Below, in pieces: positions 9,512-20,297 of a stretch of DNA of 64,000 nucleotides. The stretch comes from Escherichia phage AV124. Under the pieces are notes generated by a model. It worked only from the letters and a program-made list of their open reading frames with translations. It ran no database searches and was not told the DNA's origin. The DNA lies in sequence record OR352954, one strand, 5' to 3'. Numbering within the stretch: the stretch's first letter is position 1; the number at the start of each line of letters is the position of its first letter. A program made the translations under genes and the position numbers.

Positions 9512-9940
9512 ATGATAAAACATTGCCATAATTGCAGTGCCTGTTGTGAAGTTATCGCCATAGATAACATCACGCACGAAGAATTTCACGAAAAGGTCAG
9601 GACCGGAAGAGTATCGGCTATCCACGGGGAGATGATGAAACCAATCTCCAGGGATGAGGCCTACAAACGGAATCCTCTTGTTGTTACAGGTCGTGAAGAG
9701 GTTGGTAAAGGAACAAAACACTTCACCAGCTACTTTACCTGCACAAAGCTGAAAGACAACAAGTGCTCAATATACGGGGATCGCCCGTACATGTGCAGCG
9801 GATATCCGTTCTATGACCGAGTGCCTGTGGACACACAATCACATGCTTCTCTGTGCAAGACACAGCTTCGCAGGAAGGACACCCCGTACTCCTCAACATG
9901 CACGTATGTCCCAAACCTGATCGCAGTCAAGAATATCTGA
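9512..9940 (+). CDS. YkgJ-like putative zinc/iron-chelating protein
   Basis: CHNCSACC near N-terminus and GDRPYMCSGYPF resemble the CxxCxxCC / RPxxC signature of the YkgJ family. Confidence 0.4.
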   Translation: MIKHCHNCSACCEVIAIDNITHEEFHEKVRTGRVSAIHGEMMKPISRDEAYKRNPLVVTGREEVGKGTKHFTSYFTCTKLKDNKCSIYGDRPYMCSGYPFYDRVPVDTQSHASLCKTQLRRKDTPYSSTCTYVPNLIAVKNI

Positions 9941-10022: not shown

Positions 10023-10834
10023 CATTATACGCCAAATCTCCTGAAGCGGGAGGATACAATCACCACCCCTGCGTGAAAGGTTGCACATCCCATTAACACA
10101 CATAATATGAAGGGTCTCCCCGATATGTCGATAAAACACCATTTCATAAACACATTGCCGTAACGTGTCGATGCCATAAACATTACGGTGCGAAGCACTT
10201 TGCCAAAGGCAAAAACCTCCGGTGCTATAAATATATCGCCTTGGGCGATTAGCCAGAGGCTAACCCGTACACGGGTAAATATATCGCGTAAACAGGCCCC
10301 TGTTTTCCCCGTATAACCACCCCTTCCCCCCGTGGGGAAATCAAAACATACCCCCTGCCGAAAATATCACTTGCCGAAAAATATCATGGCTTGGTCCTTG
10401 GGTAAAAAATATTGTATTCGCACCATCTGCGGTGTTAGACGGACAGCTCCGGGCGTCAACTATCTTTACGGATCTTTACAAAATATCATGGGCAAGGTCG
10501 ATCCGGTTCCCGGTTCCTCGGGGCCTCTTCAGGCATGATAGTTACTTGCCGAAACTAATAATAATTGGGTGTGTCAGATAGCAAGCTTATGGTTTGCCAG
10601 CTTAGAGCACGATTTGCTATTGACTTGTTTATATTTATATGAATTACACCATTTAACATAAAACACGTTATACGCACTGACCAACAACGCATAGCAGACT
10701 AATAATGCCCCAATGTTACCAGTGTGACGCATAGGACAGCCGCTTCAGGTCATTACATGGTGTGACTGTTACTGTGGTGATAGTTTCATATGTGATTATT
10801 CATGTTTTAGGGTTGTTTTGTGAATGAGACGACG

Positions 10835-10889
10835 AATGAGAATCATTATTATTTCGATTTCGAATTCAATTTCGAAATGAGAATCATTC
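10835..10889. repeat. two copies of palindrome AATGAGAATCATT flanking TTCGA-rich palindromic core
   Basis: AATGAGAATCATT at 10835-10847 and 10877-10889; related copies at 19711-19723 and 19744-19758. Confidence 0.6.
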
Positions 10890-11179
10890 CGCAAATATAA
10901 ATATTTTGTAAATTTATAAATAAAAGCTTGACGAGGGAAGAGAATCGTGTTTAGCAATACATACTCTTTGAGCATCATTATCATTTGCGACTAATTCCCA
11001 TAAACCCTTGCTACGCAAGGGATTGATAGATATTTTCGATAATAAAAACACTTGACACTTCAGATAAAATCATGCTCAAAAACAAGCCTTTTCTCATAAG
11101 ATACGATCATCATTCTAATGGTTTGTCAACCATTAAACACGAATTAATTTGATTAAACTGCTAATTGTTTACAGGGTTT

Positions 11180-11530
11180 ACTATCATCAGCGACACAATA
11201 ACACAATGCCCTTCGGGTTGTTTTCGCCACGGAAAACAATGTCCAGATTGACCAAAGGGGTTTTGTGAATCCCCTTTATCTGGACACAATAACACTAGGG
11301 CGATCAACGATAGTTGATCGGTGTTATCGTGGCGATGTGATAAAGTTTCATTGCTAATCATTACAGATGTAATGATAATATACTGTGATAATTTCGTCCT
11401 TGATCGTAGCGTCTACGAGCCACGATAACGCGAACGAGAATGCGATTTGTTCGCATTTGAGTTACCCTAGTGTTATTGTGTCGCTCGCTCCGCTCGCGCC
11501 ACTCCCCACGATTCGCGAACGAGAAATTTT
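11180..11530. repeat. nested inverted- and direct-repeat cluster (origin- or operator-like)
   Basis: GGACACAATAACACTAGGG (11283) vs reverse complement at 11464; GATCAAC-GATA-GTTGATC; GTTATCGTGG vs CCACGATAAC; CGAACGAGAA twice; several GC hairpins. Confidence 0.55.
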
Positions 11531-12142
11531 ATTGACAGAAAATGATTTCTATGCTCATAAAAAGCCAGTTCACACAATGAGTTAGATGAGGAAAGTTATC
11601 ATTATAGTGATTTATGCTCATATTCACTTCCAGTGCATAGAAATTCATGATTTATTCAGTTAATAACATGCGTTATTAATTAGGTGGGGTTGTGGGGTGA
11701 AAAGCCAGGACCGACACACAATTAAACGCAATATAAAGCGTTTTGAGCGTGGTTATCGGTTACCCTCATCATGGTATGTCTTGTGTTAGATCTCAATTAT
11801 GCACTTTTTTGCATAGCGGCGGGGCCGTGGTGTGGGTTGTTTATGGTGTGGATCTGCAAAGAGAAAAGCCAGGTAAAAACCTGGCCTTTGTGTGATTGTC
11901 TTATGACTGGCTAGCCATATTGTTTTAGATAGTTTACAGCGGAAATTATTGCTTGTGCTCGGCTGTACTCTTCGCCGTTCACACGATAGCGCCGCGCGCC
12001 TTTATGGCACTGGGTGATCATAACCTGGATTATTCCATCCATAACATAGAATGCTTTACTTACGAATAAAATCATCTGATACTTTGCAACCGTGATCCGT
12101 GGCGTATGTTATCGCGTCATCAATTTTTAACATGTCACAACC

Positions 12143-12969: not shown

Positions 12970-13137
12970 TTACCTCGTCAAGTTGTTTTCGTTTGTTTGC
13001 CCTACGAGATAAATAATAATATAAGCGGGGATCGCTGTAAATAGCTCTTTACGTATCTTTACATTACTGTCGTTGTTGAGAGTAATTCTCATTACCGGAA
13101 TAGCGGGCACCTCCGGTGGCTTTCCTCCGGTATCCAT
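12970..13137 (-). CDS. hypothetical small protein (start uncertain)
   Basis: Track ORF 12970..13242 trimmed to internal ATG; weak SD; hydrophobic C-terminus. Confidence 0.25.
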   Translation of the reverse strand: MDTGGKPPEVPAIPVMRITLNNDSNVKIRKELFTAIPAYIIIYLVGQTNENNLTR

Positions 13138-19438: not shown

Positions 19439-19818
19439 AAAATATTTTATCACGGGGCTTGCAAACGGCCCCGACCTGGGTTATATTTATCAGACAGGAG
19501 AAGAGACGCCACCCCCACGGCGGAAAGGCGGGGCTAACATACCAGGCGCGGCGATCTGGTTGGAAGGTGGATCGCCGGTAGCTCGCCTTAAGCCTGTTTG
19601 TAAAGAATTGTAAAGACGATTGCAACCGGGGGTAGGATATACTATATTATACACATAGCGGGAACATTGAAACCGGAGTACAAAACACCGGGGGTGCCTA
19701 TCATTCAGCAAATGAGAATGATTACCATTCAAATAACTAAATAAGAATGCTTCTCATTCAACAAAAAATTTAAATATTGACTTCTGATTTTTCGTGTGAG
19801 ATACTGAGCGATACCCCT

Positions 19819-20024
19819 AAAAAATTTTTTCGCGTAAGAAAACAAATACGATCTGGAAATTGAGATCTCGATCGAGAACCGGGCCGAAAAATTTTTTCTA
19901 GAGAGAAAACAATTACGATCTCGATTTTGAAAAACCGATCGAGAACCCGGTTGATACAGAGAAAAATTTTTTGATAGTGAGAGCAAATACGTTTTTGAAA
20001 ACGAAAAGTCGATCGAGAACCCAG
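19819..20024. repeat. three tandem imperfect direct repeats of about 70-75 bp
   Basis: Each unit has AAAAATTTTTT, GAGAAAACAA(T)TACG and CGATCGAGAACC; units start near 19819, 19887, 19962. Confidence 0.7.
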
Positions 20025-20297
20025 AGTTTGCTACCTGAAAATTTGAGTTATCTTTTTCGCTTATTTGAGATAAATGTCCAATCTTGATGCCAAGATACCT
20101 ATAGCAATCATACACTTGTGCATCATTTTTCGACATAGCTCCCACAAAGGTTTGAGATAATCTACTCCCAAAACTCTTGATTTAAAAATTTGCAGGGAAG
20201 ATGAAATCCGTTTCAAAAACGATTTTGAAAACCATTTCGAATTTTAAAATATCTTTGGGATATTAAATATCATACAAATATCCCACAGTTTTGAATC

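Follow-up and report, generated by a model that had tools for sequence, protein, structure and literature searches.

Fur boxes as such are textbook knowledge, and binding sites for host regulators are known from the DNA of several kinds of phages. The stx1 promoter carries a Fur box on a temperate phage; cyanophage genomes carry host PhoB 'pho boxes' and NtcA sites, ahead of recognisable auxiliary metabolic genes; and the IHF sites at lambda cosB and P1 pac place a host factor at phage DNA ends. In temperate lambdoid coliphages, a Fur box controls the cargo genes sitABCD (PMC6969025). Here we analyse a stretch of 64,000 nucleotides from Escherichia phage AV124 (sequence record OR352954; one strand, positions counted from its first letter), referred to throughout as the window, in which a palindromic motif recurs in two regions poor in open reading frames (ORFs). 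These palindromes are probably Fur boxes, operators for the host iron regulator Fur; the phage is a virulent member of the Vequintavirinae, and the two control regions that hold them are non-coding and conserved. The closest relatives of the window's phage (~145 kb) are the Klebsiella, Raoultella and Proteus Mydoviruses (Vequintavirinae).

The exact 13-mer AATGAGAATCATT occurs twice in the window, at 10835-10847 and 10876-10888, with starts 41 bp apart. Both copies had been recognised in the original prediction, made by a model from the letters of the window, which put the second at 10877 and the spacing at 42 bp. Two related copies had been reported further along: AATGAGAATGATT is indeed present at 19711, and GAATGCTTCTCATTC exists as well, at 19745-19759 rather than at 19744; as had been stated, these copies adjoin a tandem repeat array (67-bp period), which starts at 19820. 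One more copy of this type of pattern, AATGATTACCATT, was found at 19717-19729, and the sites exceed the four originally listed, since others lie at 10970 and 13078, along with weak ones. The 5-3-5 dyad first described is real, but is just the centre of a longer site of 19-21 bp. A motif search of the window, along the lines of the check proposed with it, returned 2 matches to the pattern AATGANNNTCATT against 0.20 expected, and 3 of 100 shuffles reached 2 matches, a result which, taken alone, is no more than suggestive.

The first region, locus 1, is a convergent, ORF-poor junction, where small plus-strand genes end at 10538 and minus-strand ones at 11161. At the equivalent junction rV5 has a gene-free gap of 2.6 kb, drawn as a 'non-coding' box in the rV5 genome paper (PMC3606486). 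Locus 2 is a second non-coding stretch, at 19.44-20.30 kb, in which three plus-strand promoter-like elements are followed by three 67-bp repeats. The DNA is AT-rich (30-32% G+C).

The classical 19-bp Fur box consensus is GATAATGATAATCATTATC, as listed in PMC10665472 and, to judge by its letters, the 13-mer is the core of this box. For scoring, a Fur position weight matrix was derived from 11 boxes in the same paper, independently of the window. Five window sites, starting at 10832, 10970, 13078, 19708 and 19714, match the consensus at 14 out of 19 positions each, and score 12.7-16.5 bits, compared to 14-27 bits for the training sites of the matrix; sites in relatives reach 16-17 out of 19 and 20-23 bits. 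Sites of the latter quality would be expected to bind Fur regardless of other binders. The match is most direct at 10835-10850, where the bases coincide with the iucA Fur operator over 16 consecutive nucleotides, TGAGAAT variant included. PMC10665472 lists GATAATGAGAATCATTATT among the earlier-described iron boxes of Gram-negative bacteria, and a 52-nt aerobactin promoter containing it was found to be 100% identical on >600 plasmids, directly upstream of iucA.

Extending the comparison to relatives, 45 unique phage sites yield the consensus nnTAATGATAATCATTcTC, which agrees with that of Fur wherever a position is informative. The sole systematic departure is that C, rather than A, is preferred at position 17, and G at the symmetric position 3, producing the heptamer TGAGAAT rather than TGATAAT, the same variant as in the iucA operator. 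Overlapping 19-mers with a 6-bp offset are found at both loci; TGAGAATGATTACCA, at 19713-19727, fits the 7-1-7 pattern, and 4MG features a perfect TGATAATGATTATCA with this architecture. ArgR, Zur, PurR, NsrR and TyrR were considered by inspection, rather than by a formal test, and set aside, the spacing of the TGA/TCA half-sites being a misfit to their consensus sequences. K. pneumoniae boxes of similar quality do bind Fur in electrophoretic mobility shift assays, and are positive in the Fur titration assay (PMC11282780).

In the 64-kb window, the top three matrix matches, at 19714, 10832 and 19708, all score about 16 bits. Matches of at least 12 bits are 9, against 2.9 expected, and 11 out of 17 matches of at least 11 bits fall within 3.75% of the window (binomial P = 2e-12, for regions picked after the matches were known); for either locus, shuffles keeping the local AT-rich composition gave P <= 0.001. 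The complete genome of 4MG (148,567 bp) has 9 of its 10 best matches in two places, the homologous terminus region (118.4-121.0 kb) and the homologue of locus 2 (129.9 kb), with 6 matches of at least 16 bits against 0.26 expected, and 5 of at least 18 bits against 0.07. In the complete genome of rV5 (137,947 bp), a phage of another genus, the best two matches, of 23.4 and 18.3 bits, are found 136 bp apart at the homologue of locus 2. The remainder of the scanned genomes, with their dozens of sigma-70-like early promoters, served as internal negative control. Fur-like sites are thus enriched above chance and non-randomly placed, as seen in the 4MG and rV5 scans and, for the window, in the local shuffles.

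Conservation, which had been proposed as a further check, was evident: when 8 and 11 related phages were aligned, the cores showed little or no variation. At locus 1, eight Mydovirus and Seunavirus phages align with no indels between the boxes and with invariant box cores, and the substitutions found among relatives run towards the Fur consensus. Thus box 1 (boxes are numbered as in Table 1) reads AATGATAATCATT in GAP31, 4MG and EC152, and a register-shifted CATAATGATAATCATTTGC, of 20.1 bits, in FENT2; the core of box 2 is invariant in the 8 phages, and its score rises to 14.7-16.2 bits in the Seunavirus relatives. The hexamer repeats between them are kept without indels in the same 8 phages. 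Near box 3, the Fur-like sites of relatives are slightly shifted in position, as is CGCAATGATAATCATTAAC in 4MG, while the 4MG homologue of the box at 13078, GATAGTGATTCTCATTACC, is the third-best match of its genome, at 18.5 bits.

At locus 2, conservation of the non-coding DNA in 11 phages is highest in the block ATTC..G.AAATGAGAATGATT.TCATTCAA, corresponding to the composite box of Table 1, the flanks being divergent. This set spans 7 genera and 2 subfamilies (Mydo-, Seuna-, Certre-, Avuna-, Vequinta- and Henunavirus, plus the Phapecoctavirus nepoznato, of the Stephanstirmvirinae). The number of boxes varies, being one in Henunavirus, PVP-SE1 and 24-2-1, two in rV5 and four, in tandem, in CB7, CR9 and nepoznato; despite these changes in copy number (1-4) and register, the sites remain Fur-like, and the equivalents of the composite box at 19708 score up to 23 bits in rV5 and nepoznato. 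By BLAST, the segment containing the Fur box was found in 279 phage records, and exact-pattern scans of IMG/VR gave matches confined to contigs of ~85-150 kb or to fragments.

The boxes also hold definite positions relative to promoter-like elements; all promoters mentioned here are consensus predictions. At locus 2, 15-17 nt separate the end of a Fur-like box from the -35 hexamer TTGAC(A/T) downstream of it (19777 in the window) in 6 out of 6 phages. This spacing persists in PVP-SE1 and 24-2-1 despite the missing 36-bp unit: the weaker box at 19743 is absent from both, and the strong box replaces it at the same position relative to the -35. At locus 1, the end of box 2 is located exactly 38 nt before a conserved TTGAC (10928) in 8 out of 8 phages. 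In the 8-phage alignment, TTGAC and GTGTTTAGCA of this plus-strand element are invariant, as are ATTATTC and TTTTGT of the minus-strand element at 10795, while TGTAAA and ATCATT of the one at 10883 are conserved. The element at 10928 has a poor -10, and may be either a promoter or part of a terminus signal. The box at 13078 lies 43 nt upstream, on the minus strand, of a promoter-like element made of a GTAAAGA repeat and TTTACA. A constant layout, with the box at -81, was considered and rejected: it fits 10876 and 13078 in the window, but is lost in 4MG, where ~230 bp are inserted.

Table 1. Fur-like boxes and associated elements in the window (bits refer to the Fur matrix, fractions of 19 to the Fur consensus; all promoter-like elements are predicted)
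Feature	Position	Strand	Remarks
Equivalent of the 514-bp direct terminal repeat of Klebsiella phage DP	10438..10951		Assigned by homology; boxes 1 and 2 inside
Promoter-like TTCACA-N18-AATAAT	10795..10824	-	10/12, best-scoring match of the region; -35 ~8-10 bp from box 1; predicted
Fur-like box 1, ACGAATGAGAATCATTATT	10832..10850		Core 10835-10847; 14/19; 16.1 bits; first copy of the original prediction
ATTTCG hexamer repeats, weak dyad between boxes 1 and 2	10851..10875		Tandem Repeats Finder (TRF): period 6, 4.2 copies
Fur-like box 2, CGAAATGAGAATCATTCCG	10873..10891		Core 10876-10888; 12/19; 8.0 bits in the window; second copy of the original prediction
Promoter-like TTTACA-N18-AATGAT	10883..10912	-	Consensus scan 9/12; -10 hexamer inside box 2; predicted
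TTGACG-N18-TAGCAA element	10928..10957	+	Preceded by A/T-rich GTAAA stretch; straddles terminal-repeat boundary 10951/10952
Fur-like box 3, GAGCATCATTATCATTTGC	10970..10988		14/19; 12.7 bits; just downstream of plus-strand TTGACG element
Fur-like box, GAGAGTAATTCTCATTACC	13078..13096		14/19; 12.9 bits
Composite Fur-like box, GCAAATGAGAATGATTACCATTCAA	19708..19732		Two overlapping 19-mers, 15.7 and 16.5 bits; takes in the copy at 19711
Weaker box, AAGAATGCTTCTCATTCAA	19743..19761		12.0 bits; contains GAATGCTTCTCATTC (19745-19759); ends 17 nt before -35 at 19777
Promoter-like P3, TTGACT-N17-GATACT, upstream TG	19777..19805	+	Consensus scan; points into repeat array; predicted
Tandem repeat array, 3 units of ~67 bp	19820..20030	+	TRF; downstream of P3

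Several observations weigh against the assignment to Fur. The matrix is small, being based on 11 sites, one of which is the consensus itself, and the ~16-bit sites of the window, taken individually, do not go beyond shuffles, whose mean maximum is 14.4 bits. The second 13-mer copy, within box 2, is a weak Fur match in the window, at 8.0 bits. Most boxes are located upstream of the best predicted -35, not over -35 and -10, so that classical occlusion is not obvious, and the predicted promoters concerned face non-coding DNA. Finally, the G/C preference at positions 3 and 17 leaves room for a distinct or additional binder, which could exist, even if iucA shares the variant.

A dimeric regulator acting on both ORF-poor regions had been suggested from the start, and the sites do behave like operators for a dimeric protein, with dyad symmetry, conservation across genera and fixed spacing to promoter-like elements; what changes is the binder, which is probably host Fur rather than an early protein of the phage. 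Dyad symmetry, conservation and promoter-linked geometry would suit any dimeric regulator, and it might be argued that the sites are operators for a phage-encoded one, the resemblance to Fur being coincidental, or that a phage protein competes with Fur. The systematic G/C at positions 3 and 17 of the phage consensus is in line with such a view, as are the many small early genes of unknown function and the several helix-turn-helix proteins annotated in 4MG. We consider this unlikely: Pfam and PHROGs searches of 17 neighbouring ORFs yielded families of unknown function and no DNA-binding domain, and gp153, the regulator annotated in rV5, gave no tblastn match in the window. Moreover, an independent Fur matrix singles out these loci genome-wide in three phages, and host Fur is expected on sites matching at 16-17 out of 19 positions regardless of other binders. 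A tblastn search of E. coli Fur against 50,697 phage records detected no homolog in any Vequintavirinae record; with neither a phage Fur homolog nor a DNA-binding domain among the neighbours, a Fur-type binder would have to be the host protein.

A small protein gene regulated by Fur was also considered, with a single candidate downstream. This minus-strand ORF at 10574-10732, encoding a hydrophobic peptide of 52 amino acids, is open in Mydovirus, while other frames are open in Seunavirus, which indicates that the conserved thing is the DNA and not a protein; the ORF has no match in Pfam or PHROG, and the candidate was discarded. About 900 bp upstream of the Fur boxes, a plus-strand ORF of 142 amino acids (9512-9940) contains a CxxCxxCC domain, described as 'putative zinc- or iron-chelating' (PF03692, E = 7.6e-7); a link to metals is possible.

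Locus 1 coincides with a physical end of the genome in phage DP, where a repeat_region is annotated at both ends, the two copies being identical at 514 out of 514 positions; the terminal-repeat boundaries used here were carried over from this annotation. The KP12 record starts at the same equivalent position, according to arithmetic on match coordinates. Boxes 1 and 2 are found 65-115 bp from the inner boundary of the repeat. Their location within the terminal repeat, beside a symmetric boundary element, together with the iteron-like, GATC-enriched repeats adjoining locus 2, could be taken to mean that the motifs are packaging or terminus-processing signals, such as terminase recognition repeats, or belong to the architecture of a replication origin, with no relation to Fur. 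However, the motif is also present well away from the terminus, at 13078 and 19708-19761 and, in relatives, at the internal locus homologous to the latter, which makes a signal for packaging alone unlikely. Neither version accounts for the match to the Fur consensus or for the genome-wide matrix results, and overall we regard this explanation as very unlikely. The possibility of an origin at locus 2 was examined separately and dropped: GATC occurs 6 times against 1.3 expected, but a denser part is found elsewhere in the window, and no more than one DnaA-like box was seen.

The terminal-repeat boundaries have a peculiar layout of their own. At both 10438 and 10951, the boundary separates a TTGACG-N16/18 element from a TA(A/G)CA(A/C) hexamer exactly, the two arrangements being inverted, and repeats of the GTAAA type precede both boundary elements (10415-10485 on the minus strand, 10895-10960 on the plus strand), the pattern being identical in phage DP. 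This would provide each genome end with an inward-facing promoter-like element that spans the repeat boundary; alternatively, the two may be symmetric nick sites for the terminase. A 12-mer, ACACAATAACAC, is present nearby in three copies (11193-11204 and 11284-11295 on the plus strand, 11470-11481 on the minus strand), all non-coding and within 300 bp, with similar copies in DP and 4MG.

Dyads in AT-rich DNA also raise the question of folding. That the motifs are RNA hairpins of non-coding transcripts, or palindromes arising by chance at 30-32% G+C, seems extremely unlikely. The dyads are able to form short hairpins (z = -2.2 to -2.5 at locus 2), but at locus 1 neither the DNA (z = -0.38) nor the RNA of either strand has a fold that beats shuffled sequences. 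What had been described there as a TTCGA-rich palindromic core is real but weak: it comprises some four copies of the hexamer ATTTCG, forming a dyad whose 25-nt arms are complementary at 76%. Folded jointly, the 11 phages give a consensus structure of -5.8 kcal/mol, in which the covariation term is close to 0; most phages feature a G-A mismatch in the would-be stem, and the sites are found in both orientations. Scanned against Rfam, neither the window in its entirety nor the two loci taken separately gave a match above threshold. Chance, for its part, is excluded by the local shuffles and by conservation.

If the palindromes are indeed Fur boxes, the following sequence of events may be proposed. 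In an iron-replete cell, Fe2+-Fur dimers would occupy the boxes beside sigma-70-type promoter elements and, since the boxes hold fixed positions beside these elements, would modulate early, largely non-coding transcription. At P3, the box 15-17 nt upstream of the -35 would cover the presumed UP-element zone; at locus 1, one box would overlap the -10 of the minus-strand element 10912-10883, and another would sit just downstream of the TTGACG at 10928. At the aerobactin operator Fur spreads into adjacent AT-rich DNA, and a similar spreading may be proposed at the phage boxes. Repression is the most likely outcome at these promoters, activation from the upstream box positions being possible as well. 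Under iron limitation, the sites would be free.

The boxes might act in trans, too. With 5-10 of them per genome and hundreds of replicating copies, Fur could be titrated and host iron uptake derepressed; such a sink would favour iron import for iron-dependent ribonucleotide reductases. As multicopy Fur boxes derepress a reporter (PMC11282780), replicating phage DNA should act as a Fur sink in the same way. It could therefore be asked if the boxes bind Fur but were selected as a decoy, iron being needed by phage enzymes such as ribonucleotide reductases, with cis-regulation as an incidental effect. The four tandem boxes of CB7, CR9 and nepoznato fit a decoy well, as do the 5-10 good boxes per genome, two of which lie in the terminal repeat and are hence doubled, the iron-dependent NrdAB and NrdDG encoded by relatives, and the derepression of a Fur-controlled reporter by multicopy boxes in the titration assay (PMC11282780). 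A decoy, on the other hand, needs no fixed distance from a -35, and these distances survive an indel; moreover, a single box is enough in Henunavirus, PVP-SE1 and 24-2-1. Titration early in infection would also be weak, Fur being an abundant protein. On balance, selection purely as a decoy appears quite doubtful.

A broader scenario can be put forward, tentatively. A whole lineage of virulent enterobacterial myoviruses, the Vequintavirinae and Phapecoctavirus, may perhaps have built host Fur boxes into their genome ends and into a conserved non-coding locus, either as an iron sensor gating early transcription, DNA entry or replication, or as a multicopy Fur sink that makes the infected cell import iron for phage enzymes; the efficiency of infection would then depend on iron and on Fur.

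Other elements of the two regions deserve mention. A GTAAAGA-N3-GTAAAGA direct repeat is found 3-4 nt upstream of -35-like hexamers at 10463-10479 and 13046-13062 on the minus strand, and at 19600-19616 on the plus strand; it looks like a common UP-like or factor-binding module for a class of early promoters. In the ORF-poor 10.95-11.9 kb segment, TTGACA-N(17-18)-TGCTCAWAAA is present in two plus-strand copies (11052-11082 and 11532-11561), conserved in 4MG. Reading from either would enter the block of minus-strand genes by its 3' ends, and the transcripts would therefore be antisense or non-coding; a weak Fur-like site (11538, 11.7 bits) lies within the spacer of the second copy. At 11430-11454, relatives carry a strong Fur-like box (GAAAATGATAAGGATTATC in DP, 19.2 bits; 19.5 bits in PVP-SE1 and 18.7 in FENT2), and the window a degenerate version, GCGAACGAGAATGCGATTTGTTCGC, flagged in the scans as a terminator-like hairpin, an example of site turnover in the lineage.

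At locus 2, promoter-like TTGCAA-N17-TATATT elements are located at 19459 and 19620, each followed by a GC-rich segment (19455-19700). The segment at ~19490-19590 is almost invariant in 7 phages and is a candidate small non-coding RNA, with no Rfam match; the one after the 19620 element features weak covariation. In the array downstream of P3, the AATACG and GATCGAGAACC cores, with three occurrences each, are conserved across genera, and the units also bear A5T6 tracts. The array period is not a multiple of 3, and the array is therefore non-coding; the ORFs annotated over it in some records, one with a 'poor ribosome-binding site', are probably spurious. Among the records matching the locus-2 segment, MG065647.1 and MG065666.1 (135-137 kb) are labelled 'Campylobacter phage D#' and 'A12a'; they match like rV5-like coliphages, with the same identity and query span, and may be mislabelled.

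In the full-text literature, the coverage of which is incomplete, Fur boxes were not found described for these phages or for any other virulent phages of enterobacteria. The genome papers of rV5 and CB7 describe sigma-70-like promoters and the non-coding block, with no mention of Fur (rV5: PMC3606486). Phage therapy and biocontrol commonly consider candidates from the Vequintavirinae and Phapecoctavirus (rV5, PVP-SE1, the Klebsiella Mydoviruses, phi92-like phages). Iron is limited in infected tissue and replete in laboratory media, and infection programme, burst size or host takeover could differ between the two if our proposal is true. In that case, the co-option of host nutrient regulators, familiar from temperate-phage cargo genes and from cyanophages, would reach the basic layout of the non-coding DNA in a virulent phage of enterobacteria; the idea of a viral Fur decoy, which it raises, is testable.

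Compared with the iucA operator, the phage sites share the 19-bp dyad GATAATGATAATCATTATC, made of hexamer or 7-1-7 units, and a box just upstream of, or abutting, a -35 hexamer, which in the phage is a predicted one, with AT-rich DNA alongside. They differ in lying in non-coding regions of a virulent genome, at promoters without an obvious iron-related gene; several phage boxes, moreover, are 50-120 bp upstream of the predicted start sites, and binding is here a prediction. In the titration assay, many Fur-box copies per cell sequester Fur and derepress Fur-controlled genes (PMC11282780), and 5-10 boxes on replicating phage DNA would resemble this situation; the assay, however, is a laboratory artefact of high-copy plasmids. 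As with IHF at cosB and pac, a host-protein site is predicted within ~100 bp of the packaging or terminus region, but the boxes recur far from the terminus, and Fur is not known to play an architectural role.

The likeness to cyanophages would be that of a lytic phage with sites for a host nutrient sensor at its own promoters, making infection responsive to nutrients, the regulator, the nutrient and the host phylum being different. With the sitABCD and stx1 phages, the window would share a phage-borne promoter wired into the host Fur regulon. There, one box serves an accessory gene of bacterial type, expressed from the prophage; here, in contrast, multiple boxes are core and deeply conserved in the early and terminal non-coding regions of a lytic phage. 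A set of Fur boxes as a core trait of a whole lineage of virulent enterobacterial myoviruses, placed both in the terminal repeat and at a conserved non-coding locus, appears to be new.

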